From assembly GCA_041743165.1 (NCBI GenBank), contig JBGTNH010000020.1:5157-69156 (forward strand): a stretch of DNA of 64,000 nucleotides, read 5' to 3'. Every line of letters starts with the position of its first letter. Positions within the stretch are counted from its first letter, which is position 1. Of the stretch, positions 28,859 to 52,051 are shown one piece after another. Origin of the DNA: Gillisia sp. Lineage in GTDB: Bacteria > Bacteroidota > Bacteroidia > Flavobacteriales > Flavobacteriaceae. The notes under the pieces are model-generated. The model had not been told where the DNA came from and made no database searches. It saw only the letters and a program-made list of their open reading frames with translations. Both the position numbers and the translations under genes were made by a program.

Positions 28859-31165
28859 ATGAATCAGGATTATATTATACCAGATAACTGGTCAATTATT
28901 GAAGAAGGATTTGAAAAAGACCGGGTCAAATCTTCTGAAAGTTTGTTTAGTATTGGTAATGGTGCCATGGGCCAAAGAGCCAATTTTGAAGAAACGTACA
29001 GCGGGCCCTCCTTCCAGGGAAGCTATATAGGAGGGATCTACTACCCCGACAAGACAAAAGTGGGCTGGTGGAAGAATGGTTATCCCGAATATTTCGCCAA
29101 GGTTCTTAATGCCCCAAATTGGATTGGGATTGAAGTTTTAATAAATGGGGAGCAACTCGATCTTAATACATGTAAGGAAGTCAAAGACTTCAGGCGCGAA
29201 TTAAATATGAAAGAAGGCTGGTATCAACGGAGTTTCACGGCCACCCTTCAGAATGACATTAGCATCAGGATAATGTCTACCCGTTTCCTTTCAATGGAAA
29301 TAGATGAACTTGGAGTTATTGATTATTCCGTAGAGCTTCTTAGTGGACCTGCCGAGGTGATCTTCCGGCCTTACCTGGACAGCGGAATATCAAATACCGA
29401 TGCCAATTGGGAAGAAAAGTTCTGGGAAACCACAAATGTAAAGACAGACGGTCACCAGGGTTTTATAACCGCAAAAACATTGAAAACCGAATTTCATGTT
29501 TGTACTTATATGCAATCAAAAGTTCTGCTTGATCATACAGAAACAGAAGCCGAGTTCAGCAAAGAAGTTTTGAATGAAAAGGTGATCTTTTCTTATAGCC
29601 TTAAAGGACAAAAAGACCAAATTATCAGCATTCAGAAAATGGCTGGTTATGTGACCGGTCTCAATCACTCTCATGATAATCTATTGGGAGCTGCTAAAAA
29701 TGTTCTTGCAAAAGGATCTTCCCTTGGCTTTGAAGAATTGATGAACATGCAAACGAAGGCCTGGGCCCGAATATGGGATATGGCCGATATTTCTATAAAA
29801 GGTGATACAAAGGCACAGCAGGGAATAAGATTCAATATTTTTCAGCTTAACCAAACATATTCCGGTAAAGATGCAAGACTGAACATAGGCCCAAAAGGTT
29901 TTACCGGGGAGAAATACGGCGGAAGCACCTACTGGGATACAGAGGCTTATTGTATACCTTTTTACATGGCTACCAAAGATCAGGAGGTTGCCCGTAATCT
30001 ATTGACCTATCGTTATAATCACCTCGAAAAGGCGATTGAAAACGCGACCAAATTAGGATTTTCCAATGGAGCGGCACTATATCCCATGGTAACTATGAAT
30101 GGAGAAGAAAGCCATAATGAGTGGGAGATAACTTTTGAAGAGATACACCGTAACGGGGCCATAGTTTTTGCTATTTATAATTATGTGAGATTTACGGGAG
30201 ATTTTGACTACATCCCCGAAAAAGGCCTGGAAGTGATCATTGCGGTTGCCAGATTCTGGAAACAACGCGCTACTTACAGTACTCCAAAGAACAAATATGT
30301 TATTTTAGGAGTGACAGGCCCAAATGAATATGAAAACAACGTAAATAATAACTGGTATACCAATTATACCGCTCAATGGTGTCTTAACTATTGTCTCTCC
30401 ATGGTAGAGAAAGTTAAAGAAGGACACAAAGAGGAATATGAAAGGATCATAGGTCATACCAGTCTAACCGAAGGAGAGTTGCTTGCAATGAAAGAGGTGG
30501 CAGATAACCTGTATTTCCCTTATTCAGAGGAATACGGAGTTTTTCTGCAACAGGACAATTTTCTGGATAAGGAGGTCATCCCGGTATCAAAACTGGACAA
30601 AGCTCAAAGGCCTATCAATCAAAAATGGAGCTGGGACAGGATCCTCAGGTCCTGTTACATAAAACAGGCAGATGTACTCCAGGGATTTTACTTTTTTGAA
30701 GATCACTTCAGCAGGGAAGCACTCGAGAAACATTTTGAATTCTATGAACCTTTGACCGTGCATGAATCCTCATTGTCACCATGTGTTCACAGCATTCAGG
30801 CTGCCAAACTGGGTAGAATGGAACAGGCTTATAATTTCTACCTTCGCACCTCCAGGCTTGATCTTGATGACTATAACAATGAGGTGAAAGAAGGTTGCCA
30901 CATTACAAGTATGGCCGGTACCTGGATGAGCATAGTAGAAGGATTTGGAGGAATGCGTATTGTTAACGATCAATTATGCTTTACCCCACAAATCCCTGAA
31001 CAATGGCAAGCTTACTCCTTTAAAGTCAATTTCAGGAATAAAATTGTAAAGATTGAAGTAACTGCTGGAAAAACAAATTTTAGCCTTGAAGGTGATGGCC
31101 CCATCGAAATTTTAGTGAATGGTAAAAAAGTTACTGTTGGGTTAAATGAGCCGGTGGCAGTTTAG
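28859..31165 (+). CDS. GH65 maltose phosphorylase
   Basis: ESLFSIGNG, GPKGFTGEKYGG, YWDTE, GPNEYENNV, IKQADVL, HESSLS. Confidence 0.92.
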   Translation: MNQDYIIPDNWSIIEEGFEKDRVKSSESLFSIGNGAMGQRANFEETYSGPSFQGSYIGGIYYPDKTKVGWWKNGYPEYFAKVLNAPNWIGIEVLINGEQLDLNTCKEVKDFRRELNMKEGWYQRSFTATLQNDISIRIMSTRFLSMEIDELGVIDYSVELLSGPAEVIFRPYLDSGISNTDANWEEKFWETTNVKTDGHQGFITAKTLKTEFHVCTYMQSKVLLDHTETEAEFSKEVLNEKVIFSYSLKGQKDQIISIQKMAGYVTGLNHSHDNLLGAAKNVLAKGSSLGFEELMNMQTKAWARIWDMADISIKGDTKAQQGIRFNIFQLNQTYSGKDARLNIGPKGFTGEKYGGSTYWDTEAYCIPFYMATKDQEVARNLLTYRYNHLEKAIENATKLGFSNGAALYPMVTMNGEESHNEWEITFEEIHRNGAIVFAIYNYVRFTGDFDYIPEKGLEVIIAVARFWKQRATYSTPKNKYVILGVTGPNEYENNVNNNWYTNYTAQWCLNYCLSMVEKVKEGHKEEYERIIGHTSLTEGELLAMKEVADNLYFPYSEEYGVFLQQDNFLDKEVIPVSKLDKAQRPINQKWSWDRILRSCYIKQADVLQGFYFFEDHFSREALEKHFEFYEPLTVHESSLSPCVHSIQAAKLGRMEQAYNFYLRTSRLDLDDYNNEVKEGCHITSMAGTWMSIVEGFGGMRIVNDQLCFTPQIPEQWQAYSFKVNFRNKIVKIEVTAGKTNFSLEGDGPIEILVNGKKVTVGLNEPVAV

Positions 31166-31178
31166 GGATTTTTAATAC

Positions 31179-31559
31179 ATTAAGGAAAGGGATTTTCCCG
31201 GAGGCTGGCAGGGCGATAAAAACAATGTCTTTACCCGGGCGGAAAGAAGCGATTTTCAGGAAAACTATCAATCGTTTACAAAGACCTTAGTGAGCTATCG
31301 TAAGAATAAAGAAGTGTTGCTTTTCGGAAAATAGCTGCATTATCTTCACGAAGAGAATGTTTATGTGTATTTTAGATATATTGATTATGACAGAGTGATG
31401 GTGGTACTTACCAATCCCAAAGAAAAGCAGATTGACCTTAGCTGGTATAAAGAAGGTTTGGCCGGGGCAATTGCCGGGAAAAGCATTCTTGATTCTCAAG
31501 CGGTACCCCATGCCAATACATTGGCCATCACGGGAAAGACCCCATGGTTATTGAATTAA
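31179..31559 (+). pseudogene. C-terminal remnant of a GH13 cyclomaltodextrinase/neopullulanase (SusA-like)
   Basis: RDFPGGWQGD...YRKNKEVLLFGK*LHYLHEENVYVYFRY...VMVV; in-frame TAG at 31332; catalytic domain absent. Confidence 0.8.
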
Positions 31560-31563
31560 ACTT

Positions 31564-33981
31564 ATGATTTTGAAAAAGAGTATTTATTTGGAAATATATA
31601 GGATCGCGGTTTCATACTTGATCTTCCTGGTGTTTTCCTCAGGATTTTCTCAGAATAACAACAGGACTTTCGAAAGCTATAATTTTAATAATGACACCCT
31701 CACTATTAAGGTAAATGACGGGGAGTATAAAATCTTGTATTATTCACCCGAAATTGTGGAAACATCCTTTATTCCTTCTGCAGAAAGTTTTATAAAGGAA
31801 TCCTTTGCAGTTGTAATGAAGCCGGAAGGTGTTGATTTGGCTGTAAAGGATGCAGATAATATACTTACCATTGATTCTGAAGGAGTGGATATTTCTATTA
31901 CCAAAAAGCCTTTTCAGATAAAGTATTTTTATAAAGATGAGGAGGTTATTTCGGAAAGATCCGGATTTATCAAAGGGAAAGAGCATCATAAGATCGAATT
32001 TAATATCACTCCCGAGGAAATGTTGTTTGGTGGTGGCGCCAGGGCCCTTGGAATGAACCGAAGGGGAAACAGGCTGGAATTGTATAACAGGGCACATTAT
32101 GGCTATGAGGAAAAGTCAGAATTGATGAATTACACTTTACCTGTATTTTTTTCTTCAAAGAAATATCTGGTCCATTTTGATAATGCCCCCATTGGTTTTC
32201 TGGATCTTGACAGCCAGGAGAACAACACTTTAGCATACGAAACCATAGGTGGCCGCAAAACCTATCAATTGGTGGTAGGGGAGACATGGGAAAGGATCAT
32301 AGAGAATTATACCGGACTTACCGGGCGGCAGCCTATGCCTCCAAGATGGGCTTTGGGTAATTTTTCCAGCAGATTTGGATACCATTCTCAGAAGGAAGTT
32401 CTTGAAACTATTCAGAAATTTAAGGAAGATGCTATACCTGTTGATGCTGTGATCATTGACCTTTACTGGTTTGGAAAGGAGATGAAAGGAACTATGGGAA
32501 ACCTGGAATTTTACAGAGATTCTTTTCCGGAACCTGAAAAAATGATCGCCCAACTCGAAGAGCAGGGGGTGAAAACTATTCTTGTTACAGAGCCGTTCAT
32601 ACTTTCCACCTCAAAACGGTGGGACGAGGCTGTAGAACAAAAAGTTCTGACCACAGATGCTAAAGGCAAGCCATTCACTTTTGATTTTTACTTTGGGAAC
32701 ACAGGTTTGATAGATATCTTTAAACCTGAAGCAAAAAACTGGTTCTGGAATATTTATAAGGAGCTTACCGAAATGGGAATTGGCGGCTGGTGGGGAGATC
32801 TTGGGGAGCCCGAGTTTCATCCTTCAGAATTAAGGCATTTTTCAGGAAGTGCAGATGAGTTGCATAATGTTTACGGGCATGAATGGGCGAAAATGGTTTA
32901 CGAAGGTTACAGGCAGGATTTTCCCGGACAACGACCTTTTATTTTAATGAGAGCAGGAGCGGCAGGATCCCAGAGATATGGCCTGATCCCATGGACCGGA
33001 GATGTGAACCGAACCTGGGGCGGATTAAGATCTCAGCCTGAGATATCCCTTCAAATGGGTATACAGGGATTGGGATATATGCATTCAGATCTGGGAGGAT
33101 TTGCCGGGGATAACCTGGATGATGAACTCTATGTGAGATGGTTGCAATATGGAGTTTTTCAGCCCATATACAGGCCTCATGCCCAGGAAGAAGTTCCATC
33201 AGAGCCTGTTTTTCGGGCAGCAGCGGCCAAAGCACTTTCAAAAAAAGCAATCGAATTAAGATATCAGTTACTGCCATATAATTATACCCTGGCATATGAG
33301 AATAGCAGATCAGGAATTCCTTTGATGCGACCCCTTTTCTTTGAACAACCAGACAGTCTTGATCTTTTCGAAATTGCAAATACTTATTTGTGGGGAAATG
33401 ATATTTTGGTCTCTCCGGTAATGGCAAGCGGCCTGAAAGAAAAGTCGGTAGTTTTCCCTTCGGGTTCCAACTGGTTTGATGCATACACGGGAAGGAAATA
33501 TACAGGAGGCGTTACACGAAACATTCCTGTTGTAGAAGCACATATACCCACTTTTGTAAGAGGCGGTGCATTTATACCTATGGCCAAACCTATGCTAACG
33601 ACTGCCAATTATACAGGTGAAACCCTGGAGGTACATTATTATTTTGATGAGGATATAAAAGAAAGCAGCGGAATACTATATCATGATGATGGTAAAACAC
33701 CTGAAGCATTTGAGGAAAAGAAATATGAAATTATACATTTTTCAAGCAGCCTGGAGCCCAAAATTTTGAATATTAAAGTGGAAAAAGAAGAGGGTGGTGC
33801 GGCTACAGATAAGATCCAATTGATAGAAGTTATAATTGAAAACCTCAAAAAACCTGTAGATGTGGTATGGGTCAATACACTTAGATTCACTGCCAAAAAT
33901 TACATGCACCAGGGAAAACTGGTGATCCCTGTAAGATTTGATGTCAATAACATCACTACTATAAAACTTGAATTCCTTTAG
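31564..33981 (+). CDS. GH31 alpha-glucosidase/transglucosylase
   Basis: QPMPPRWALG, DLYWFG, GWWGDLGEP nucleophile, WTGDV, HSDLGGF. Confidence 0.9.
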   Translation: MILKKSIYLEIYRIAVSYLIFLVFSSGFSQNNNRTFESYNFNNDTLTIKVNDGEYKILYYSPEIVETSFIPSAESFIKESFAVVMKPEGVDLAVKDADNILTIDSEGVDISITKKPFQIKYFYKDEEVISERSGFIKGKEHHKIEFNITPEEMLFGGGARALGMNRRGNRLELYNRAHYGYEEKSELMNYTLPVFFSSKKYLVHFDNAPIGFLDLDSQENNTLAYETIGGRKTYQLVVGETWERIIENYTGLTGRQPMPPRWALGNFSSRFGYHSQKEVLETIQKFKEDAIPVDAVIIDLYWFGKEMKGTMGNLEFYRDSFPEPEKMIAQLEEQGVKTILVTEPFILSTSKRWDEAVEQKVLTTDAKGKPFTFDFYFGNTGLIDIFKPEAKNWFWNIYKELTEMGIGGWWGDLGEPEFHPSELRHFSGSADELHNVYGHEWAKMVYEGYRQDFPGQRPFILMRAGAAGSQRYGLIPWTGDVNRTWGGLRSQPEISLQMGIQGLGYMHSDLGGFAGDNLDDELYVRWLQYGVFQPIYRPHAQEEVPSEPVFRAAAAKALSKKAIELRYQLLPYNYTLAYENSRSGIPLMRPLFFEQPDSLDLFEIANTYLWGNDILVSPVMASGLKEKSVVFPSGSNWFDAYTGRKYTGGVTRNIPVVEAHIPTFVRGGAFIPMAKPMLTTANYTGETLEVHYYFDEDIKESSGILYHDDGKTPEAFEEKKYEIIHFSSSLEPKILNIKVEKEEGGAATDKIQLIEVIIENLKKPVDVVWVNTLRFTAKNYMHQGKLVIPVRFDVNNITTIKLEFL

Positions 33982-42493: not shown

Positions 42494-43639
42494 ATGAAAA
42501 ATTTTCTTTCTCTCTTCTTAATAATATTTATCCTGGGTTGTAAGGGTGAAGATCGATTAAAGTCTGAAAATAATACTACAGATACTACAAATGCTGTTTC
42601 CCTGGATGAAGTAATCGCAACAGAAAGAGTGGAAATGAACCTGGAACAGGCCAATAAACTAGCTGAGTTACCTCTGGCGTGTATCAATAAACAATATCCC
42701 AATAAATTGGGCCAGACATTGGGCAGTGAAAAAGATTTGCAATCACCCCAGGCCCTGCACCCCGCATTCTATGGATGTTTTGACTGGCATTCCAGCGTTC
42801 ATGCCCATTGGTCACTGGTACGTCTGCTTAAGAAATTCCCCAAGCTGGAGCGGGCCAATGAGATCAAGGAGGTATTGGAAACCTCTCTATCAAAAGAAAA
42901 TATCAGCAAGGAGATCGAATATTTCAGACAGGAGCATAATAAGGATTATGAGCGTACTTACGGCTGGGCCTGGCTCTTAAAATTATCTCAGGAACTCTAT
43001 ACCTGGGAGACAGATATTGGAGAGGAACTCTCTGCCAACATTCAACCTCTGGCAGATCTGATAGTGGAAAGGTATAGGGATTTTCTTCCAAAACTCAATT
43101 ATCCTATTAGAGTTGGTGAACATACAAATACCGCCTTTGCTTTAAGTTTTGGATATGATTTTGCAGTTGCTACAGAAAATGCTGAATTCCGCTCTCTGAT
43201 AGAAAAACGGGCCCGGGATTTTTATCTCAGTGATAAAAATTGCCCTATTTCATGGGAGCCCAGTGGTTTTGATTTTTTCTCTCCCTGTCTTGAAGAGGTG
43301 GATGTAATGAGAAAAATCATGCCCCGAGCCGCATTTTCTATGTGGATTGATAATTTTATGCCACAGTTAAAAAATAACGACTTCACATTGGAGGTGGGAG
43401 AGGTTTCAGACAGGCAGGATGGTAAACTGGTTCATCTTGACGGATTGAACTTTAGCAGAGCGAGGATACTTTATGGCCTTGCAAATCAATATCCTGAAGA
43501 TTTTGCACATTTGAGATTGGTTGCACACAGACACGTGAATCATTCATTTCCCAATCTTGTAGGTGATAGTTATGAAGGGGGACATTGGCTGGGGAGTTTT
43601 GCTATCTACGCCCTCGAGGAATCCAGAAAAGGACGGTGA
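42494..43639 (+). CDS. DUF2891 lipoprotein
   Basis: Lipobox ILGC; HPAFYGCFDWHSSVH, YERTYGWAW, HLDGLNFSR, YEGGHWLGSFA. Confidence 0.85.
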   Translation: MKNFLSLFLIIFILGCKGEDRLKSENNTTDTTNAVSLDEVIATERVEMNLEQANKLAELPLACINKQYPNKLGQTLGSEKDLQSPQALHPAFYGCFDWHSSVHAHWSLVRLLKKFPKLERANEIKEVLETSLSKENISKEIEYFRQEHNKDYERTYGWAWLLKLSQELYTWETDIGEELSANIQPLADLIVERYRDFLPKLNYPIRVGEHTNTAFALSFGYDFAVATENAEFRSLIEKRARDFYLSDKNCPISWEPSGFDFFSPCLEEVDVMRKIMPRAAFSMWIDNFMPQLKNNDFTLEVGEVSDRQDGKLVHLDGLNFSRARILYGLANQYPEDFAHLRLVAHRHVNHSFPNLVGDSYEGGHWLGSFAIYALEESRKGR

Positions 43640-44859
43640 AAACCTTCTTAAAGAATATTGGCCCGGGAGTTTTAGTATCAGCAGCTTTTATTGGCCCCGG
43701 AACAGTTACGGTCTGTACCCTGGCAGGAGTTAACTTTCAATATTCCTTATTATGGGCTTTACTGCTATCAATAATCGCCTGTATCATTTTACAGGAAATG
43801 GCCGCCCGTCTCGGGATTATCGCTCAAAAGGGATTGAGTGAATGTATAAGGGAAGAAATCAAACATCCCGTTACAAGAACTTTAGCGATCATTCTTATAT
43901 TCTCTGCTATTGTAATTGGAAATGCTGCTTATGAAGCAGGTAATATAACCGGTGCTGTATTAGGTATTACAGCTATAGCTCCTTCTCTTAATATTGAAAT
44001 TCAGGGATTTTCTTTGAATTTATGGAGCATTATAATAGGTGCGTTGGCATTTATGTTACTTGCTATTGGAAATTACATAATTCTTGAAAAGGTCTTCATT
44101 GCCCTGGTTTGCCTAATGGGTATTTCTTTTCTGATCACTGCTTTTCTGGTTAAACCAGACTTTGGTGAAGTTTTAAAAGGGCTTTTTATACCTTCTGCCG
44201 GATCGGCTGGTTTGCTTACGGTAATGGCTCTTATAGGCACCACAGTAGTGCCTTACAATCTCTTTCTCCATGCTTCTCTTGTAGGAGAGAAGTGGAAGGA
44301 CCCGGGAGACCTGAGAATAGCCAGAAAAGAGCTTTTAATTACTATTTTATTGGGAGGTCTTATTTCTATGGCTATAGTTATCTCAGCCGCTGTTCCCAAT
44401 TTGTTGAATGTAACTTCTGCAGCAGATCTTGCAGTAGGCCTGGAACCACTGTTTGGGAAATATGCCACCTGGTTCATTGCCCTGGGATTACTTGCTGCCG
44501 GGATCACATCTTCTATTACCGCTCCACTGGCTGCTGCATATGTGGTCAAAGGCTGTATGGGCTGGAAGGGGAGTATGGAATCTTATAAGTTCAAAAGTGT
44601 ATGGGCGGGAATCATTTTATTGGGGGTATTCTTTTCTTCATTAAAACTAAACCCGATTGAATTAATAAAATTTGCTCAGGTAGCAAATGGAATTTTATTG
44701 CCGGTGATAGCTATATTTCTTCTTTGGATCGTTAATAAAAGTTCGGTTCTTGGAGAATACAAAAATACGGTATTACAGAATTCCCTGGGTTTCATAATTG
44801 TCGCCATAACTATCCTGCTTGGTGCCCGTTCTATTTATACGGTGGTTCAAACATTTTAA
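43636..44859 (+). CDS. Nramp-family transporter (YcsG-like)
   Basis: GPGVLVSAAFIGPGT, GNAAYEAGN, GTTVVPYNLFLH; GTG start overlapping the previous stop. Confidence 0.85.
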   Translation: MKTFLKNIGPGVLVSAAFIGPGTVTVCTLAGVNFQYSLLWALLLSIIACIILQEMAARLGIIAQKGLSECIREEIKHPVTRTLAIILIFSAIVIGNAAYEAGNITGAVLGITAIAPSLNIEIQGFSLNLWSIIIGALAFMLLAIGNYIILEKVFIALVCLMGISFLITAFLVKPDFGEVLKGLFIPSAGSAGLLTVMALIGTTVVPYNLFLHASLVGEKWKDPGDLRIARKELLITILLGGLISMAIVISAAVPNLLNVTSAADLAVGLEPLFGKYATWFIALGLLAAGITSSITAPLAAAYVVKGCMGWKGSMESYKFKSVWAGIILLGVFFSSLKLNPIELIKFAQVANGILLPVIAIFLLWIVNKSSVLGEYKNTVLQNSLGFIIVAITILLGARSIYTVVQTF

Positions 44860-44869
44860 AATTTTCATC

Positions 44870-45607
44870 ATGAAGTATATTCACATCAATTGCGATCTTG
44901 GAGAAGGGGGTAACAATGATGCAGAACTTATGGCTTTGGTTTCTGCATGCAATATTGCATGTGGAGGTCATGCCGGAACTTTAGATACTATGAGAGAAAC
45001 TGTGGCCCTTGCTTTGAAACATCATGTTCAGATTGGTGCTCATCCCTCATATCCCGATAAGGAGAATTTTGGCAGGTCATCATTGAAAATGACTCCTGAA
45101 GATCTTAAGAGATCATTGGTTGCACAAATCCTTAGCCTTAAACAAATAACCGAATCTGAAGGTGGAAAACTAAGTCATATTAAACCACATGGTGCACTTT
45201 ATAATGATGCTGCCGCCGATGAAAAAACTGCAGAAATAGTGATTCAGGCTGTAGAGGAATTTGGGGAAGATCTTCATCTTTATGCCCCTCAAAATTCTGT
45301 GATTTCCCGTCTCGCCCAAGGACGAATTAAGGTAGTTTTTGAGGCCTTTGCAGACCGCAGATATGAGACAAATTACCTACTTGTTTCAAGGCAAAAAAAG
45401 GATGCTTTAATTACTCAAAAAGAGGAGGTTTTTAACCATCTTTCTGAGATGTTTTTTAAGGGCGAAATCACCAGTATTAATGGCGAAAAATTAGCCTGCA
45501 ATGCTGCTACTTTTTGTATCCATAGCGATACTCCAAATGCTGTTGAGATATTGCAATTTTTAGAGGAAAAATTGAAAGGAAATAATATTGAAATTTTAAA
45601 GAATTGA
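44870..45607 (+). CDS. pxpA: 5-oxoprolinase subunit A (LamB/YcsF)
   Basis: INCDLGEG, CGGHAG, GAHPSYPD, HIKPHGALYN, CIHSD. Confidence 0.93.
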   Translation: MKYIHINCDLGEGGNNDAELMALVSACNIACGGHAGTLDTMRETVALALKHHVQIGAHPSYPDKENFGRSSLKMTPEDLKRSLVAQILSLKQITESEGGKLSHIKPHGALYNDAAADEKTAEIVIQAVEEFGEDLHLYAPQNSVISRLAQGRIKVVFEAFADRRYETNYLLVSRQKKDALITQKEEVFNHLSEMFFKGEITSINGEKLACNAATFCIHSDTPNAVEILQFLEEKLKGNNIEILKN

Positions 45608-46338
45608 TGGAGAATTTTCCGCATATAAAAGTGATGGGGGAGAGGGCAATTCTCGTTGAATTTTCTCCGGAAATAAGTGAAACTCTGCTTAAAAAGCTTC
45701 TTTTTTATAAAAATTTACTGCAAAAAAATTTTTTTAAACAAAAGGTTGAGGTTATTAACGCATATTCCTCGTTATTAATATATTATCATTATGATATAGA
45801 TAATATCTATAGTGAGGTTTCAAAGGTAAATCGACTTTTTTACAGGGCTAATGTAGACAAAAAATTTAACTCTCATTTATTTTATATACCAGTGTGCTAT
45901 GATCGGGAATTTGGTCTTGATCTGGATTATATTTCCAAAGAGAAAAAGCTTACGAATGAGGAAATTATCAGGCTGCATTCCAACCCAATTTACACGGTTT
46001 ATTTTATTGGTTTTTTACCCGGATTTTTATACCTGGGAGGTCTCGATAAAAAGCTTCATATCTCGCGGAAAAATACACCCAGATCGAGGGTTGAAAAAGG
46101 GGCAGTGGGGATAGGTGAAAATCAGACCGGAATTTATCCAAAATCCAGCCCGGGAGGATGGCAGATAATCGGGAATTCTCCGGTGGAAATGTTTGATAAA
46201 AACAGTGATCCTCCCTGCCCCATAAATGCCGGGGATAAAATAAAATTTCAACCGGTTTCCCGGGATGAATATGAGGTCATAAAAACCCGGGTTAGTCAGG
46301 GTACATTTCAATTAAGAAGGGAGGAATATGAGGGCTGA
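45607..46338 (+). CDS. pxpB: 5-oxoprolinase subunit B
   Basis: IPVCYD, GFLPGFLY, GIYP..SPGGWQIIG. Confidence 0.93.
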   Translation: MENFPHIKVMGERAILVEFSPEISETLLKKLLFYKNLLQKNFFKQKVEVINAYSSLLIYYHYDIDNIYSEVSKVNRLFYRANVDKKFNSHLFYIPVCYDREFGLDLDYISKEKKLTNEEIIRLHSNPIYTVYFIGFLPGFLYLGGLDKKLHISRKNTPRSRVEKGAVGIGENQTGIYPKSSPGGWQIIGNSPVEMFDKNSDPPCPINAGDKIKFQPVSRDEYEVIKTRVSQGTFQLRREEYEG

Positions 46339-47212
46339 AATCGAAGTGCTGAAACCGGGATTGTTTTCCACCATTCAGGATAAGGGCAGGTTTGGATTTA
46401 TGGATTCTGGAGTTCCAACCAGTGGACCTATGGATATGTATGCTTCCCGACTTGGAAATTTGCTTCTCAATAATTCACCGGATAGACCTGTATTGGAAAT
46501 TACCCAAACAGGTCCAACATTAAAATTCTGGTCCCCGGCAAATATTGTGATCACCGGCGGTAATTTATCGCCAATGATTAATGATTCCGAAATTAAAAAT
46601 GGCAGGATCTCCATCTTAAAAAAAGGGGATGTTTTAAGTTTTGGTAAAAGGATTCTTGGTAGCCGGGCTTATGTTTGTATTCAGGGTGGATTTACGGGCA
46701 ATAAAGTTTTGGGTAGTTACAGTTGGTATGATGGATTGACCGAGCATTTTCGGTTGGAAAAAGGCATGAATCTTTATTTGGATTCTGAATTACAAGGGGA
46801 AATTAATACCACCTCCCTGGTAAAGTATAGTGAAAATTATCTCTCTGAGTGTATAGTTACAGTTTATCCGGGACCGGAGTTTTATTCTCTTCCTGGTGTT
46901 ATGCAACAGGAAATTTTGAAGAGGAATTTTACCGTTGATTCAAAAAGTAATCGTATGGCAATTCTGTTTAAAGAAATATTTAAGAATTATATGGAACCTA
47001 TAATTTCGGGACCTGTGATCCCCGGGACTGTTCAATTGACCCCTTCCGGAAAGATGATTATTCTTATGAGGGACTGTCAGACAACAGGCGGATATCCCCG
47101 GGTCTTACAGATAAGTACCAAGGGTCTTAATGTGCTCGCTCAAAAAATGACAGGAGATAAAATAAAATTTCAGTTGGTTGATCCTATTAAAAAAGAAGTG
47201 TCGCCGATATAA
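46328..47212 (+). CDS. pxpC: 5-oxoprolinase subunit C
   Basis: TIQDKGRFG, GPMD, PGTVQL, DCQTTGGYP. Confidence 0.93.
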   Translation: MRAEIEVLKPGLFSTIQDKGRFGFMDSGVPTSGPMDMYASRLGNLLLNNSPDRPVLEITQTGPTLKFWSPANIVITGGNLSPMINDSEIKNGRISILKKGDVLSFGKRILGSRAYVCIQGGFTGNKVLGSYSWYDGLTEHFRLEKGMNLYLDSELQGEINTTSLVKYSENYLSECIVTVYPGPEFYSLPGVMQQEILKRNFTVDSKSNRMAILFKEIFKNYMEPIISGPVIPGTVQLTPSGKMIILMRDCQTTGGYPRVLQISTKGLNVLAQKMTGDKIKFQLVDPIKKEVSPI

Positions 47213-47288
47213 ACGATAGCAGCCCTACCTACTATGTCAACATCTTTGCGACACTTTTTTACCCCTGAAAGGAGTTTATCCAACTTTA
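47189..47288 (-). ncRNA. Predicted ~100-nt small RNA, copy 1
   Basis: Minus-strand promoter (TTG 47323-47321, TAAATTTG 47300-47293); long hairpin AAGUGUCGC/GCGACACUU with apex UAGGUAGGGCUG, then UUCUUUUUU; ends approximate. Confidence 0.5.
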
Positions 47289-47292
47289 AAAC

Positions 47293-47340
47293 CAAATTTA
47301 AGTCTAAATTCACCTCCGGGCAAGGGGATTTTTCCCCTTT
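47293..47340. promoter_or_regulatory. Palindromic operator copy 1 plus divergent sigma70 promoter
   Basis: CAAGGGGATTTTTCCCCTTT at 47321-47340, identical to 48862-48881. Confidence 0.8.
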
Positions 47341-47416
47341 TATTCTATAAATGAATATTTCATTCTGAATTTGTTTATTTTTATTTTATTTAACAAAAAT
47401 TTTAAAATCATAAAAT

Positions 47417-47806
47417 ATGGCGAAACCAGAAAAGTGTATAACAGTTGAAGAAGCCAGAGACCTTCAGAATAATTGGAAAAGGACCCGCGGTAAGGAAATA
47501 GAGAGAGGACAGGGTTATGTAGATACACCTGAATTTTGGTACAGCATTGCTGAACTGGAAGAGTATATAGAGTATGTAAAACTTAAGTCTGGGGAACAAG
47601 GGGTGAATAATCCCGGGTTGCGCATTTATCTTGGAGCCTACCCTTCCCTGGGACAGAAGAAAAGCTTCACTACAATTTTCATAACTCCTACCATGCCGAT
47701 GGGTGATGAGAAAAGCCTGAATGAAAATGAAGGGGAACAAGTAAATAATTATGAGATCGATCCTATTAACGAGAGCCAACAGGGATATCCTCCAATCGAT
47801 TATTAA
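47417..47806 (+). CDS. Small soluble hypothetical protein (129 aa), first gene of the signalling cassette
   Basis: No signal peptide; FWYSIAELEEYI, GLRIYLGAY, TIFITPT, C-terminal N..QQGYPPIDY. Confidence 0.8.
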   Translation: MAKPEKCITVEEARDLQNNWKRTRGKEIERGQGYVDTPEFWYSIAELEEYIEYVKLKSGEQGVNNPGLRIYLGAYPSLGQKKSFTTIFITPTMPMGDEKSLNENEGEQVNNYEIDPINESQQGYPPIDY

Positions 47807-47812
47807 GAAGTT

Positions 47813-48559
47813 TTGTTGCTGGAATATTTTATAAAGAACTCGCTCCTGATGTATCTTCTGGAGATTGGGGCAGCTGTGGCAGGGACGATTTATCTCAACC
47901 GCGCAAAATATCCTGTGCCCTACTCAAAACTTTTTGTGGGATATCTGTGGTTAGTAGTACTTGTAGAAATAATAGGGTATTACCCCACATTTAATTTTTT
48001 CACCCATTTTTCCTACATGCCTTTTGTCGAAGGAACTGTATTCGAAAGAAACTTCTGGCTATATAATTCCTACAACATTGTCAAATTCGCTATTTATTTC
48101 ATCTTTTTTATAGCACAATTACGTAGTAAGAGCAGCATACAGGTTTTCAAGTTGGTCCTGGCAGGCTTTGTAATTACGGCTATTTTAAATCTTATATTTA
48201 CCGATGTTTTTTATACCCGGAGCTCTACATATACCTATATAACCGGTTCCCTTACACTTATGATTTTAATCTTTGTTTATTATATGGAGTTGCTTAGGAG
48301 TGACAGGATATTATTCTTTTATAAAAGTCTTCCCTTTTACATTTCGGTAGGCCTGCTGCTATGGAACGTGACTATAACGCCGCTTTTTATATATAATAAA
48401 TATTTTACCAGTGCGAGTCCGGAATTTGTTAGTTTGCATTCTACTATCCTTAGAGTTTCCAATTTCTTCCTTTACGGAATCTATATAACGGCTTTCATTA
48501 TATGTTCATCGAAGAGTAAAAGTAATTTACTCCCTAGTAATCCATCCGTAAAGGTTTGA
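47813..48559 (+). CDS. Seven-transmembrane protein of unknown function
   Basis: Seven hydrophobic segments counted by eye; TTG start 6 nt after the previous stop; no soluble enzymatic domain. Confidence 0.75.
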   Translation: MLLEYFIKNSLLMYLLEIGAAVAGTIYLNRAKYPVPYSKLFVGYLWLVVLVEIIGYYPTFNFFTHFSYMPFVEGTVFERNFWLYNSYNIVKFAIYFIFFIAQLRSKSSIQVFKLVLAGFVITAILNLIFTDVFYTRSSTYTYITGSLTLMILIFVYYMELLRSDRILFFYKSLPFYISVGLLLWNVTITPLFIYNKYFTSASPEFVSLHSTILRVSNFFLYGIYITAFIICSSKSKSNLLPSNPSVKV

Positions 48560-48728
48560 ATCTTCTAGTAACAGGTAATCCACATAACAAGTCTATTTTG
48601 CTTGACTGTCTTTTATAAAATGATAAAGGATATTAGATAAAAAATATTGGAATATAGATGAGCCGTGATGAGGGTAAAAAGTAAGGATCCTGGCTATAAA
48701 ATAGGGAGTTAGTAAAAGAGCCTGAAAT

Positions 48729-48829
48729 AAAAAAAAGTGCCATTCAGATGTATCTTGTTAACAGCCCTACCTATTATCAATTACCTAAAATGACACTTTT
48801 ACTATAATACTTTATAAAGAAAAATTGAC
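48729..48829 (-). ncRNA. Predicted ~100-nt small RNA, copy 2
   Basis: Minus-strand TTG 48864-48862 and TACTTTTA 48841-48834; hairpin AAAAGUGUCAUU/AAUGGCACUUUU (U.G only on this strand), same apex UAGGUAGGGCUG, U8 tail; ends approximate. Confidence 0.5.
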
Positions 48830-48833
48830 CTGG

Positions 48834-48881
48834 TAAAAGTAGGTTTGAGGTTAATACCAAACAAGGGGATTTTTCCCCTTT
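48834..48881. promoter_or_regulatory. Palindromic operator copy 2 plus divergent promoter
   Basis: CAAGGGGATTTTTCCCCTTT at 48862-48881. Confidence 0.8.
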
Positions 48882-48957
48882 ATTTTTGGGAAAATTGTTC
48901 TGTTTAAGCAAATGCCCATAAAATTTTATGTATACTTGTTTAAAGAATTGATTTTCT

Positions 48958-49743
48958 ATGCTTGCCAAAGAGGAAATGCTCTTAATTGTTTATTTTACAG
49001 TTGTCATACTCCTTTTGACCGCCTTCGCCATCGTTTTCTTTATTACTTTCCAAAGAAGAAAGAATAAACTGTTAATGGAAAAATTTGAGACCGAAAAAAG
49101 ATTTGAAGAAGAACTTACCCAATCCCGGCTCGAAATTCAGGAACAAACTTTAAAAAATGTTGCGTGGGAGTTGCATGATAATATTGGACAGTTACTTTCT
49201 GTAGCCAATATGCAGCTTAACATGCTTAGCGGTAAAGTGGAGGAATCATCACAGGGCCCGGTACTGGAGATCAGAAACATTGTAGCCAGTTCCCTTCAGG
49301 AAGTCAGGTCCCTTTCAAAATCTCTAAATAATGAAGTCATCGATTATTCCGGTCTTGAAGCTTCAGTTAAAAATGAACTTGATAGATTTACACGACTTAA
49401 TATCCTTGATGCCAGAATGGAAGTGACAGGCGAAAGTTTTGAGATCCACCAAAAAGATGCCATCATTTTATTCAGGATACTTCAGGAATTTTTCAGCAAT
49501 GTCATCAAACATTCCAGGGCCAGCTTACTTAGCGTGAATTTTAAATTTGAAGCGGAACATTTAATTATTAATGCCAGGGATAATGGGGTGGGTTTTGAGG
49601 TGGAGGATGTTCAGAAGAATTCGGGTTTACTCAATATGAAAAGTAGAGCAGAGGTCATAAATACTCAATTTGATCTAACCTCTTCCAAAGATGTAGGAAC
49701 TTCCTTATCTTTATCCTATCCTTTAACTACATGTAAAGAATGA
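48958..49743 (+). CDS. HisKA_3-type histidine kinase, single TM, no sensor domain
   Basis: N-terminal TM, WELHDNIGQ H-box, RILQEFFSNVIKH, DNGVGF, GLLNM. Confidence 0.92.
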   Translation: MLAKEEMLLIVYFTVVILLLTAFAIVFFITFQRRKNKLLMEKFETEKRFEEELTQSRLEIQEQTLKNVAWELHDNIGQLLSVANMQLNMLSGKVEESSQGPVLEIRNIVASSLQEVRSLSKSLNNEVIDYSGLEASVKNELDRFTRLNILDARMEVTGESFEIHQKDAIILFRILQEFFSNVIKHSRASLLSVNFKFEAEHLIINARDNGVGFEVEDVQKNSGLLNMKSRAEVINTQFDLTSSKDVGTSLSLSYPLTTCKE

Positions 49744-50372
49744 GTAAATCTGTCATAATAGTTGATGATCACAATCTTTTTGGCCAATCCCTTAAGGGCT
49801 TGATTGGATCCTTTCCAAATTTTGAAGTCCTGGAAGTCTTCAAAAATGGCGGGGAATTGGTGGATTACTTATCTGCGAATAAAAAACTACCCGATATCAT
49901 TTTATTGGATGTGAGAATGCCTGTGATGAATGGGTTTGAAACCATGGATTGGGTTAGGAAAAATCTGCCGGATCAAAAGGTTCTGGCATTAACGATGGAA
50001 CATGATGAGGAAACCATTATTAAAATGATCAAGGCGGGTTGCAGGGGATATTTGTTAAAGGATATTGAGCCCAACGAATTTTTACTTGCGCTTAATTGTG
50101 TGACCGAGAGTGGATTTTACCTTAATGAAGAATCTTCCATTGCTTCATGTTCTTCTAATAAAGATAAAGTTGAAGAAAAACTTTCCCAAAGAGAATTAGA
50201 ATTCCTCAATTTGGCTTGTAGTGAACTTACCTATAAGCAGGTGGCAGATGAAATGAACCTTAGCCCGAAAACCATAGATGGATATCGGGAAAGTCTTTTC
50301 AATAAACTCCGGGTTCGTAGCAGGGTGGGCCTGGTATTGTATGCTGTAAAAAACAATATGGTAGAAGTTTAA
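49740..50372 (+). CDS. NarL/LuxR-family response regulator
   Basis: IVDDH, LLDVRMPVMNG, LTM, GYLLK, LSQRELEFL...TIDGYRESLFNKL. Confidence 0.95.
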   Translation: MSKSVIIVDDHNLFGQSLKGLIGSFPNFEVLEVFKNGGELVDYLSANKKLPDIILLDVRMPVMNGFETMDWVRKNLPDQKVLALTMEHDEETIIKMIKAGCRGYLLKDIEPNEFLLALNCVTESGFYLNEESSIASCSSNKDKVEEKLSQRELEFLNLACSELTYKQVADEMNLSPKTIDGYRESLFNKLRVRSRVGLVLYAVKNNMVEV

Positions 50373-50527: not shown

Positions 50528-52051
50528 GTGATCGATTCGGCCAAAATAGAATTAAGGAATTTAAGATTAAAAGATTACCAGGAGTTAAAAATTTCCATGA
50601 TCAAGAGTTATGGAACAATGGGCGATGAGTACTGGAGTAAGGCTGAAATCAAAACCCTCATCAACAAATTCCCTGACGGGCAGTTCTGTATTGAAATAGA
50701 TGGAAAGATTGCTGGCTGCGCCCTTTCTATTATTGTAGACTACGATAAGTTTGATGCTAACCACAAGTACGAAGATATCATTGGAGGAGAGAATTTCTCT
50801 ACCCACACCAATAATGGAGATGTGCTTTATGGAATTGATGTTTTTATTCACCCCGATTATCGCGGGATGCGCCTGGGAAGAAGATTATATGAAGCCAGAA
50901 AGGAACTTTGCGAGCAGCTCAATTTAAAATCCATAATATTTGGAGGCCGAATTCCAAACTTTGCCGCTTATGCAGATGAATTAACTCCCAAAAAATATAT
51001 TGATAAGGTAAAACTCAAAGAGATCCACGATCCTGTGCTTTCCTTCCAGCTTTCCAATGATTTCCACGTAAAAAAGGTGATCAAAGGTTATTTGCCGGGA
51101 GATGAGGACAGTATGGAATTTGCCACCCTAATGGAGTGGAACAATATTTACTACACCAAGGAGAAGAAGCTTATTGACACCAAAAAAACGGTTGTGCGGC
51201 TGGGATTGGTGCAATGGCAAATGAGGTTGTTTAAGGACTATGACGCCCTGGTGGCCCAGATAGAATTTTTTGTGGATGCGGTGAGCGATTATCAAAGCGA
51301 TTTTATTCTTTTTCCTGAATTGTTCAACGCCCCGTTAATGGCGCAATTTAACCATTTGAATGAAGCTGAAGCCATTCGTGGCCTGTCATCATATACTGAA
51401 AGATTGCTGGAAACATTCAGGGAATTTGCGATAAATTATAATATCAATATCATCACCGGAAGTATGCCCCAGGTTCAGGGAGAGCATATGCATAACGTAG
51501 GATTTTTATGCCGAAGGGATGGTAGCTATGAAAAATATGAGAAACTGCATATCACCCCGGCTGAAGAATCGGCCTGGGGGATGAAAGGCGGATCAATTCT
51601 TCAAACTTATGATACAGATTGCGGTAAGGTAGGTGTCCTGATATGTTATGACGTTGAATTCCCCGAATTACCAAGGCTTCTAGCTGAAGAGGGTATGAAC
51701 ATACTTTTTGTGCCATTTATGACAGATACTCAGAACGGTTATTCCAGGGTGAAGATCTGTGCTCAATCCCGTGCAGTAGAAAATGAATGTTACGTTGCTA
51801 TCGCCGGATCTGTGGGGAATCTTCCAAAGGTGAATAATATGGATATACAATATGCTCAAAGCGCTGTATTCACCCCATCAGATTTTGCTTTTCCTGTAAA
51901 TGGCATCAAGGCCGAAGCTACCCCAAACACAGAAAGTACCCTGCTGGTAGATGTGGATCTTGATTTGTTGAAAGAATTACACGCTTTTGGAAGTGTGAGG
52001 AATATGAAGGACAGGAGAAAAGATCTGTATTCCCTGAAACGGAAAAAATAA
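50528..52051 (+). CDS. Bifunctional GNAT acetyltransferase / carbon-nitrogen hydrolase
   Basis: GNAT: VFIHPDYRGMRLGRRL; nitrilase triad FPE, YEKLH, ICYDVEF; GTG start. Confidence 0.9.
   Translation: MIDSAKIELRNLRLKDYQELKISMIKSYGTMGDEYWSKAEIKTLINKFPDGQFCIEIDGKIAGCALSIIVDYDKFDANHKYEDIIGGENFSTHTNNGDVLYGIDVFIHPDYRGMRLGRRLYEARKELCEQLNLKSIIFGGRIPNFAAYADELTPKKYIDKVKLKEIHDPVLSFQLSNDFHVKKVIKGYLPGDEDSMEFATLMEWNNIYYTKEKKLIDTKKTVVRLGLVQWQMRLFKDYDALVAQIEFFVDAVSDYQSDFILFPELFNAPLMAQFNHLNEAEAIRGLSSYTERLLETFREFAINYNINIITGSMPQVQGEHMHNVGFLCRRDGSYEKYEKLHITPAEESAWGMKGGSILQTYDTDCGKVGVLICYDVEFPELPRLLAEEGMNILFVPFMTDTQNGYSRVKICAQSRAVENECYVAIAGSVGNLPKVNNMDIQYAQSAVFTPSDFAFPVNGIKAEATPNTESTLLVDVDLDLLKELHAFGSVRNMKDRRKDLYSLKRKK

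Follow-up and report, generated by a model that had tools for sequence, protein, structure and literature searches.

In the Firmicutes, the LiaFSR and VraTSR systems combine a HisKA_3 kinase that lacks an extracytoplasmic sensor with a NarL-type regulator and an accessory membrane protein encoded alongside; they autoregulate through a palindromic box, and an inducible upstream gene pair stands apart from the unit of signalling genes. SaePQRS of Staphylococcus aureus likewise has four genes, encoding two small auxiliary proteins (one of them in the membrane), an intramembrane-type kinase and a regulator, with an autoregulated promoter, while in UhpABC a HisKA_3 kinase and a NarL-type regulator rely on a separate polytopic membrane sensor. 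In a second group of circuits, comprising GacS/GacA-RsmXYZ, BarA/UvrY-CsrBC and LuxO-Qrr, a regulator activates one to several paralogous small RNAs (sRNAs) via a palindromic upstream site. Here we describe a locus with likenesses to both groups in a 64,000-nt stretch of Gillisia sp. (assembly GCA_041743165.1, contig JBGTNH010000020.1, positions 5,157 to 69,156; hereafter the window). It consists of four genes, for a small protein, a seven-transmembrane (7TM) protein, a histidine kinase and a response regulator, accompanied by duplicated palindromes and two predicted sRNAs. These four genes are a real, widely conserved and uncharacterised signalling module of marine-type Flavobacteriaceae.

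Signalling and RNA regulation are poorly charted in the Bacteroidota, where few sRNAs are known, Shine-Dalgarno-based mechanisms are absent and promoters are non-classical. A preliminary description of the window had called the system apparently uncharacterised, and our literature search likewise found no paper describing the module. We consider it probable that the module acts as an accessory-protein-dependent two-component system controlling both itself and a divergently transcribed cargo that differs between lineages.

A four-gene cassette conserved as a unit

All four open reading frames (ORFs) lie on the plus strand at the positions claimed in the preliminary description, in the order small protein (47417-47806, 129 aa), 7TM protein (47813-48559, 248 aa), kinase with one transmembrane (TM) helix (48958-49743, 261 aa) and NarL/LuxR-type regulator with REC and GerE domains (49740-50372, 210 aa). 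The ORF coordinates also bore out the coupling of the first two genes, which are spaced by 6 nt, and the kinase and regulator genes share 4 nt (ATGA), the regulator start lying over the kinase stop. The 7TM ORF starts with a TTG that lines up with the ATG starts of its homologues. The picture of a single four-gene cassette held for order and strand, which recur elsewhere, but required one correction, in that the window has a 398-nt gap with a promoter-like region between the 7TM and kinase genes, whereas these two reading frames abut or overlap in most other genera.

A scan of species-representative genomes yielded 61 loci and a metagenome scan seeded with the small protein yielded 80 more, and gene order and strand were checked by hidden Markov model (HMM) and phmmer searches of all locus ORFs. 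The cassette order and the single strand were kept in every locus not cut by a contig end (66 + 80 loci), and the four families, on whose co-occurrence in other genomes the preliminary description had staked its proposal, were found together throughout. The 61 species-representative loci belong to Aequorivita, Aquimarina, Gilvibacter, Dokdonia, Salegentibacter, Christiangramia, Gillisia, Salinimicrobium, Antarcticibacterium and Kordia, and none of them falls outside the Flavobacteriaceae. The cassette thus spans ~140 loci in more than 10 genera of this family and at least four flanking contexts, and look-ups of four 7TM homologues recovered the same four genes in two unrelated flanking contexts.

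A single-helix kinase beside two orphan protein families

Pfam and NCBIfam scans placed a HisKA_3 domain at residues 68-124 of the kinase (PF07730, 37 bits; cutoff 24) and a HATPase_c domain at residues 167-257 (PF02518, 33.5 bits; cutoff 26.4), and its H-box, WELHDN, was invariant among 102 homologues. The regulator matched Response_reg (PF00072, 80.6 bits) and GerE (PF00196, 51.8 bits), with the recognition helix SPKTIDGYR in the window. By these domains both proteins belong to the two-component class that pairs a HisKA_3 kinase with a NarL (GerE) regulator, and the intact H-box, ATPase, REC and GerE domains, together with the adjacency and overlap of the two genes, predict phosphotransfer from kinase to regulator. 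None of the named NCBIfam equivalogs (MctS/MctR, UhpB/UhpA, NarX/NarL, UvrY/GacA, LiaS) reached its cutoff, the best scores being 98.6 bits against a cutoff of 700 for the kinase and 123.7 bits against 300 for the regulator.

The 5' part of the kinase gene encodes a 6-residue N-terminus and one hydrophobic helix (~residues 7-31), so the domain scan upheld the earlier account of a kinase with one TM helix and no input domain. The TM and juxtamembrane part contains the motifs LLIVYF and FQRRKNK. Mean top-residue frequency was 0.66 in the TM helix, 0.63 in the catalytic and ATP-binding (CA) domain and 0.71 in the dimerization and histidine phosphotransfer (DHp) domain. Because the helix is conserved like the catalytic core, an interaction surface fits better than a mere anchor, and this conservation and the missing input domain agree with the earlier suggestion that the kinase likely needs a partner. 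We did not assign the kinase to the intramembrane-sensing class by the strict Mascher definition, which requires two TM helices joined by a short linker and no extracytoplasmic domain, where this protein has one helix, though it may work like members of that class.

The 7TM protein, our predicted partner or sensor for the kinase, was modelled with AlphaFold2 from a 25-sequence alignment as a seven-helix bundle (predicted local distance difference test (pLDDT) 88.9, predicted TM-score (pTM) 0.85), within which residues E17, E52 and N217 are conserved. The positive-inside rule would place its N-terminus outside and its C-terminus inside, and hence its most conserved loop, GTxFERNxWLYN, on the outer face. 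It matched no family in Pfam, NCBIfam, PHROGs or PADLOC, in line with the earlier description of a 7TM protein without an enzymatic domain, and its profile matched no PDB sequence at E up to 10. A Foldseek search of the PDB with the model returned only generic GPCR/rhodopsin-like bundles (best E 0.13, TM-scores 0.40-0.55). A microbial rhodopsin or GPCR-like receptor was therefore rejected, the likeness being that of any seven-helix bundle and no fold similarity being significant; TM7 (FVSLHSTILRVSNFFLYGIYITAFIICS) contains no Lys, so the protein is not a rhodopsin. We also rejected 7TMR-DISM and the other Pfam 7TM input modules, since one of 25 members matched PF07695 at E = 0.005 and the others matched none.

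At E up to 1e-3, the wider 7TM family numbers 1358 representative clusters. The 150 highest-ranking of these 1358 profile matches were all stand-alone proteins of ~240 aa, with no fusion of a 7TM protein to a kinase domain among them. One distant stand-alone 7TM gene (P0212; L067 4001-4732 and L068; profile E ~1e-23) lies just 5' of the DUF2891-Nramp-pxpABC operon that also precedes the cassette in the window, with no kinase or regulator near it, and another (P0201) adjoins a Usp gene. Some cassettes carry three to four paralogous 7TM genes in tandem before a single kinase-regulator pair (L006, L016, L049, L077, L090) and others two small+7TM pairs before one kinase-regulator pair (L008, L076), which suggests diversified inputs or, alternatively, diversified immunity-like outputs.

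The small protein has a conserved ~95-aa alpha/beta domain, followed by a variable acidic linker and a conserved tail, NNYxIDPxNxSxxGxPPxxY. Its model, three helices and a beta-hairpin, is of moderate confidence (pLDDT 70.5). We found no match for it in Pfam, NCBIfam, PHROGs or PADLOC, none for its profile among PDB sequences at E up to 10, and no structural match in a Foldseek search of the PDB, the last being weak evidence at a pLDDT of only 70.5; the earlier statement that its fold is unknown thus stands. Matches to AbiTii, seen in 4 of 27 members at E ~0.03, were judged to be noise, no Pfam family being hit consistently. No signal peptide was found on the small protein in the ~140 loci. 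A Kordia locus (L066, 1024-3970) has three small-domain genes 5' of its 7TM, kinase and regulator genes, two encoding ~308-aa lipoproteins with tandem copies of the domain and one a ~215-aa single-TM protein, all three ending in G-x-LSPPP.

Palindromes form a predicted operator

The two intergenic regions of the window share a duplicated element, represented by AGCCCTACCTAYTAT at 47221 and 48763 and by the palindrome AAGGGGATTTTTCCCCTT at 47322 and 48863. The two palindromes (47322..47339 and 48863..48880) are identical, as expected from the earlier claim of duplicated operators, and are here termed predicted operators 1 and 2. For the small-protein/7TM transcript, a box conserved between +46 and +53, counted from the palindrome centre, led us to TGAATTTG (47366-47373, plus strand) and TATTTTTA (47376-47383, plus strand) as candidate -7 boxes, and the centre of operator 1 lies 47-58 nt upstream of the candidate transcript start. 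A separate kinase-regulator transcript would start from the candidate -7 box TATACTTG (48931..48938, plus strand), which lies inside TTTTATGTATACTTGTTAAA, a sequence conserved in all four copies of that intergenic region. Each operator centre is also 42.5 nt upstream of its predicted sRNA start, a distance that would correspond to the position of a class-II activator.

Across the loci, the palindrome GGR-W4-6-YCC occurred at 8.3 per kb in the 220 nt 5' of the small gene compared with 0.195 per kb elsewhere (~43-fold). It was present in 49 of 61 loci, with at least two copies in 35, and clustered 80-120 nt before the small-gene ATG. Aequorivita loci have two to four repeats ~22 nt apart with 3-4-bp stems and no T-run, and so look like an operator array and not like a terminator; the palindrome in intergenic region 1 (IGR1) of locus L001 also lacks a T-run. 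In Aquimarina and Dokdonia, CGG/CCG-type repeats take the place of GGG..CCC. The regulator helix reads TIDGYR where sites are of the GGG..CCC type and SPKTIENYR or SPKTIENRR where they are of the CGG/CCG type, a co-variation of helix and half-site that is suggestive but confounded by phylogeny. From these comparisons the palindrome is better read as the regulator's predicted operator than as an sRNA terminator, and since it stands 5' of both the small/7TM and the kinase/regulator genes, the module probably regulates itself. A further operator-type palindrome, GGGATTTTCCC (31189-31199), is located in the intergenic space after the ORF at 28859-31165, with the start of an 805-aa ORF (31564-33981) following ~375 nt further on. 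It may belong to the regulon as an additional site or have arisen by chance; the window contains the loose pattern at 0.375 per kb.

A proposed signalling route

In the arrangement that we favour, the 7TM protein would sense a stimulus, a membrane or envelope cue being our default guess, and would pass it to the single-helix kinase within the membrane, as suggested by the acidic and polar residues conserved in the bundle and by the conserved outward-facing loop. The small protein would join them as an additional partner, with the conserved tail at its C-terminus probably serving for docking. The kinase, given the intact domains of both proteins, would then phosphorylate the NarL-type regulator, the dimer of which would bind GGGG-N6-CCCC-type palindromes and activate the divergent cargo promoters, in the window those of the two sRNAs.

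A competing explanation, to which we assign a modest chance, holds that the small and 7TM proteins are the regulated output, envelope-protective or immunity-like in the manner of the LiaIH proteins of LiaRS, and that the kinase senses the membrane directly via its own TM helix. A palindrome does lie 5' of the small/7TM pair in all lineages, and in the window this pair forms a predicted transcription unit apart from the kinase and regulator genes, but the overlap of the 7TM and kinase genes in most genera suggests co-translation and a fixed stoichiometry, and a 25-residue helix with a 6-residue outer tail would make a poor stand-alone sensor. Arrays of three to four 7TM paralogues, as often seen with immunity genes, and the existence of stand-alone family members could be expected of an output; the arrays, however, are equally compatible with receptor diversification, and no conserved toxin partner was found nearby.

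Predicted small RNAs divergent from the cassette

In the clade of the window, four blocks are conserved upstream of the palindrome, namely A (AAAAAAGTGCC), B (AGCCCTACC), C (GRCACTTTTTT) and D (CAAAnnTA). On the minus strand the first three fold into a long hairpin whose loop, GGUAGGGC, is invariant, and a U-tract follows in most copies. The reverse complement of block D reads TAnnTTTG, which is the sigma-A -7 box of flavobacteria and occupies positions -12 to -5 (PMC9723704). The preliminary description had predicted sRNAs attached to the circuit; that part holds, but their strand is corrected here to minus, divergent from the cassette.

Predicted sRNA 1 (47189..47288, minus strand, ~100 nt) was delimited by a covariance model, folding and a start taken from its -7 box TAAATTTG (47293..47300, minus strand). 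It comprises a 5' single-stranded or short-hairpin part, a long hairpin with the apical loop GGUAGGGC and a U-tract, and its 3' end is antisense to the last ~24 nt of the upstream pxpC gene. Its covariance match (47188-47262, minus strand) scored 57.6 bits compared with 27.2 on the plus strand, and its minimum free energy (MFE) was -34.1 kcal/mol (z = -5.5). Predicted sRNA 2 (48729..48829, minus strand, ~100 nt), delimited by the covariance model and folding, is a paralogue of sRNA 1 situated between the 7TM and kinase genes, with a covariance match at 48727-48804 (minus strand; 69.4 bits compared with 30.3 on the plus strand), an MFE z-score of -3.2 and the -7 box TACTTTTA (48834..48841, minus strand; 7/8 matches). 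Folding z-scores of five copies ranged from -2.7 to -6.6.

The strand was determined from 36 copies, in all of which (36/36) the strand antisense to the cassette folded better (mean -26.4 vs -17.2 kcal/mol; Wilcoxon p = 1.7e-7) and which were richer in G·U pairs on that strand. At one basal position 19 copies have a U·G pair, 11 a U-A pair and 6 a C-G pair, and the 19 U·G pairs would become C·A mismatches on the other strand. The covariance model recovered more than 50 copies, one to four in tandem per locus, all but one antisense to the cassette and with opposite-strand scores 30-50 bits lower; it had no match in the Aequorivita, Aquimarina, Gilvibacter or Dokdonia loci. In the model alignment, 93.4% of cells were paired, 10 of 17 pairs showed a compensatory change, and the covariation score of 0.359 exceeded that of shuffles (0.162 +/- 0.012; 0/500 reached 0.359) and of slid registers (at most 0.095). 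The one copy oriented like the cassette (L076, 1540-1620, plus strand) lies ~250 nt 5' of the first small+7TM pair of a locus with small genes at ~1870 and ~2977, which shows that the RNA need not be divergent from the cassette.

Independent evidence came from the promoter box and the palindrome, neither of which is part of the covariance model. A TAnnTTT(G/A) box was found 21-37 nt upstream on the RNA strand in 45 of 46 model matches (36 with the full TTTG; background 5.7%), and a palindrome lay beyond the box in 40 matches, exactly 24 nt away in 35 of these. The resulting promoter has the form TTG-N20-TAnnTTTG, its -33 TTG lying 20 nt upstream of the box at the palindrome edge. The elements thus have the features by which an sRNA gene is recognised operationally, namely their own promoter, a covarying structure and a terminator-like 3' end, and these computations support both the existence and the strand of the predicted sRNAs. 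Rfam gave no match in the window at gathering thresholds and only noise at E up to 10 within 47100-49000. A search of the window for targets through the loop complement AGCCCTACC found nothing convincing beyond the genes themselves.

Two other interpretations of these blocks were rejected. Block C is not a sigma-54 promoter, as -24 GG/-12 GC is not conserved and the regulator has no AAA+ domain, and a plus-strand sRNA terminated by the palindrome disagrees with the strand asymmetry, the promoter position and the non-terminator-like palindromes of other genera. At ~1560-1756 of the Salegentibacter tibetensis locus (L007), low-complexity A/C-rich repeats (AACCGAAAAC-like) lie between the sRNA/palindrome and the small gene and replace the usual promoter region.

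Lying between an A-tract and a T-tract, the hairpin would also terminate plus-strand transcripts arriving from pxpC and from the 7TM gene. Termination after the 7TM gene would imply, in this clade, a separate palindrome-associated promoter for the kinase and regulator genes. Another reading makes the elements purely passive: the hairpin would terminate transcription in both directions, the palindrome would be another terminator or a repeat element, and neither an sRNA nor an operator would be present. We regard this as improbable. The A-tract on one side and T-tract on the other, at gene ends, would suit it, yet termination needs neither an invariant 8-nt apical loop nor a conserved 60-nt stem, and it leaves unexplained the strong strand asymmetry with G·U pairs and the sigma-A promoter at a fixed distance in 45 of 46 copies. 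The palindrome of the window was scored as terminator-like, but the short-stem repeats of Aequorivita, without a T-run, are not. No RNA run contains the window sequence, which was found only in hot-spring DNA metagenomes; against passive elements, tandem sRNA copies each have their own promoter and palindrome, and the same spacing recurs at promoters of protein genes.

Divergent cargo in other genera

The palindrome-rich intergenic region of Aequorivita and Gilvibacter loci is shared with a divergent neighbour of the cassette, which is of three types. One is the first gene of an operon for a phage-tail-like extracellular contractile injection system (eCIS) (Pvc16_N, 291-aa protein, sheath and gp19 tube proteins), found in 24 of 117 non-redundant loci, or ~28 if four loci with only 291-aa or sheath matches are counted. 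The second is a PG_binding_1+CHAP hydrolase (5 loci) and the third a PG_binding_1+N-acetylmuramidase (3 loci). Counted by cargo, 23 loci have an sRNA, ~24-28 an eCIS and 8 a hydrolase.

At the eCIS Pvc16 promoter the TAnnTTTG box is perfect; in 11 of 20 loci a CAGG-N6-CCTG palindrome stands exactly 25 nt upstream of it, and further palindromes lie ~70, 93 and 115 nt away. The Gilvibacter muramidase promoter, GGGTTTATCCCCTTG-N20-TATTTTTA, is built like those of the sRNAs. With one palindrome-to-box spacing serving different cargo, the module looks like a portable sensor and switch for lineage-specific cargo. A published survey reported that GerE regulators adjoin 25.8% of eCIS loci and that 9% of these have a kinase upstream, from which its authors proposed a two-component system (PMC8213781); the module gives an anatomy to this adjacency.

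It is conceivable, though we think it unlikely, that the 7TM sensor, single-helix kinase, small adaptor and LuxR-type regulator form a dedicated receptor-kinase pathway of Flavobacteriaceae, a master switch for "firing" (making eCIS particles and cell-wall hydrolases and releasing them by lysis) that has been rewired, in lineages such as that of the window, to act through one to four paralogous hairpin sRNAs. Least credible is a quorum-type circuit, in which the 129-aa protein would make or be a signal, the 7TM protein would be its receptor, and the kinase, regulator and sRNAs would give a density-dependent output. In its favour, the cassette is self-contained and autoregulated in appearance, its multi-copy sRNAs next to and divergent from the regulator operon resemble Vibrio qrr/luxO, the variable linker of the small protein leads into a conserved C-terminal tail, its Kordia homologues are exported lipoproteins, and eCIS and lysin cargoes are costly group-level traits of a sort often density-controlled. 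Against it, no synthase, peptidase or exporter family matches the small protein, which lacks a signal peptide in ~140 loci and possesses a structured conserved ~95-aa domain unlike pheromone precursors, and no conserved processing or export genes were found among the cassette neighbours. Two claims of the preliminary description thus found no support: that of a signal producer, as no enzyme-like family or fold, signal peptide, or nearby exporter or processing gene was found for the 129-aa protein, and that of cell-cell signalling, as neither the cassette nor its conserved neighbours contain a synthase, or a precursor with export or processing genes.

Several observations weigh against an accessory-protein-dependent system that controls itself and its cargo. 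Distant members of the 7TM family can occur without a kinase, and it is synteny and conservation that suggest the putative contacts of the 7TM and small proteins with the kinase. Kordia carries the small domain in lipoproteins and in a TM-anchored protein, which makes the compartment in which the domain acts uncertain. About 12 of the 61 loci have no palindrome as defined, and in the clade of the window the palindrome with its T-run could also serve as a terminator. To these we add the phylogenetic confounding of the helix/half-site co-variation and the lack of RNA runs with the window sequence.

Neighbouring genes

Upstream of the cassette on the same strand, the window contains the series DUF2891, Nramp, pxpA (LamB_YcsF), pxpB (CT_C_D) and pxpC (CT_A_B) at 42494-47212. 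The same context was found in L001, L002, L006, L008-L010, L013 and others, and the same-strand upstream neighbour was pxpC or DUF2891 in 61 of 117 loci from several genera. Genes pxpB and pxpC are the homologues of those for Bacillus subtilis KipI, which inhibits the kinase KinA, and KipA, which antagonises KipI, and the position of pxpBC next to a sensor-less kinase may go beyond inherited synteny. Directly 3' of the regulator lies a gene for a 507-aa fusion of a GNAT acetyltransferase and a carbon-nitrogen hydrolase of the nitrilase superfamily (50528-52051), which is kept in close relatives including L001 and L002. No paralogues of the cassette proteins were found elsewhere in the window, and the 64 kb contain no eCIS genes.

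Comparison with described systems

Two general arrangements are of kinds already known, namely two-component systems with an accessory membrane protein (LiaFSR, SaePQRS, UhpABC) and multi-copy sRNAs driven by a regulator (Gac/Rsm, Qrr). The module differs in having two protein families without annotation, a kinase with strictly one helix, a family of sRNAs not described before and a modular "cargo slot". LiaF is an unrelated protein with four TM helices and a DUF2154 domain, whereas the 7TM and small proteins of the module have no Pfam match; LiaS has two TM helices and a HAMP domain, and the Lia and Vra systems belong to another phylum and have no sRNA output. SaeP resembles the small-protein homologues of Kordia in being a lipoprotein, but SaePQRS differs in its OmpR-type regulator, HisKA kinase, four TM helices in SaeQ and gene order, and shows no sequence relationship. 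UhpB gave the second-best NCBIfam match to the kinase, yet the module kinase scores 92 bits against the UhpB cutoff of 408, and UhpB has eight TM helices and UhpC is a 12-TM transporter of the major facilitator superfamily (MFS).

The Aequorivita and Gilvibacter loci fit the description of an eCIS-associated GerE regulator with or without a kinase given by Geller et al. 2021 (PMC8213781). That survey differs from our account in that it contains no 7TM or small partners, palindromic operator, fixed promoter geometry, or replacement of the eCIS by sRNAs or hydrolases. The module matters as a concrete candidate regulator of eCIS and lysin expression, the control of which is an open question in the field. 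It offers in addition two unannotated families apparently feeding a sensor-less kinase, a clearly defined predicted operator with rigid promoter geometry, and a structurally supported new sRNA family of more than 50 copies. With cultured carriers in Aequorivita, Gilvibacter, Christiangramia, Salegentibacter, Gillisia, Aquimarina and Dokdonia, each step is directly testable.

Among the sRNA circuits, GacA and UvrY are NarL/FixJ-type regulators like that of the module, and Vibrio qrr1 is divergent from the regulator operon. The module regulator, however, scores 106 bits against the UvrY/GacA cutoff of 280, and the kinase architecture is unrelated. The predicted RNA of the module also differs from those of the Gac, Bar and LuxO circuits in being a single long hairpin with one GGUAGGGC loop, and is neither a multi-GGA sponge nor an Hfq-type Qrr. 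If the module were indeed a master switch rewired through sRNAs, which we hold to be unlikely, it would be a Bacteroidota counterpart of Gac/Rsm or LuxO/Qrr built from entirely different parts.

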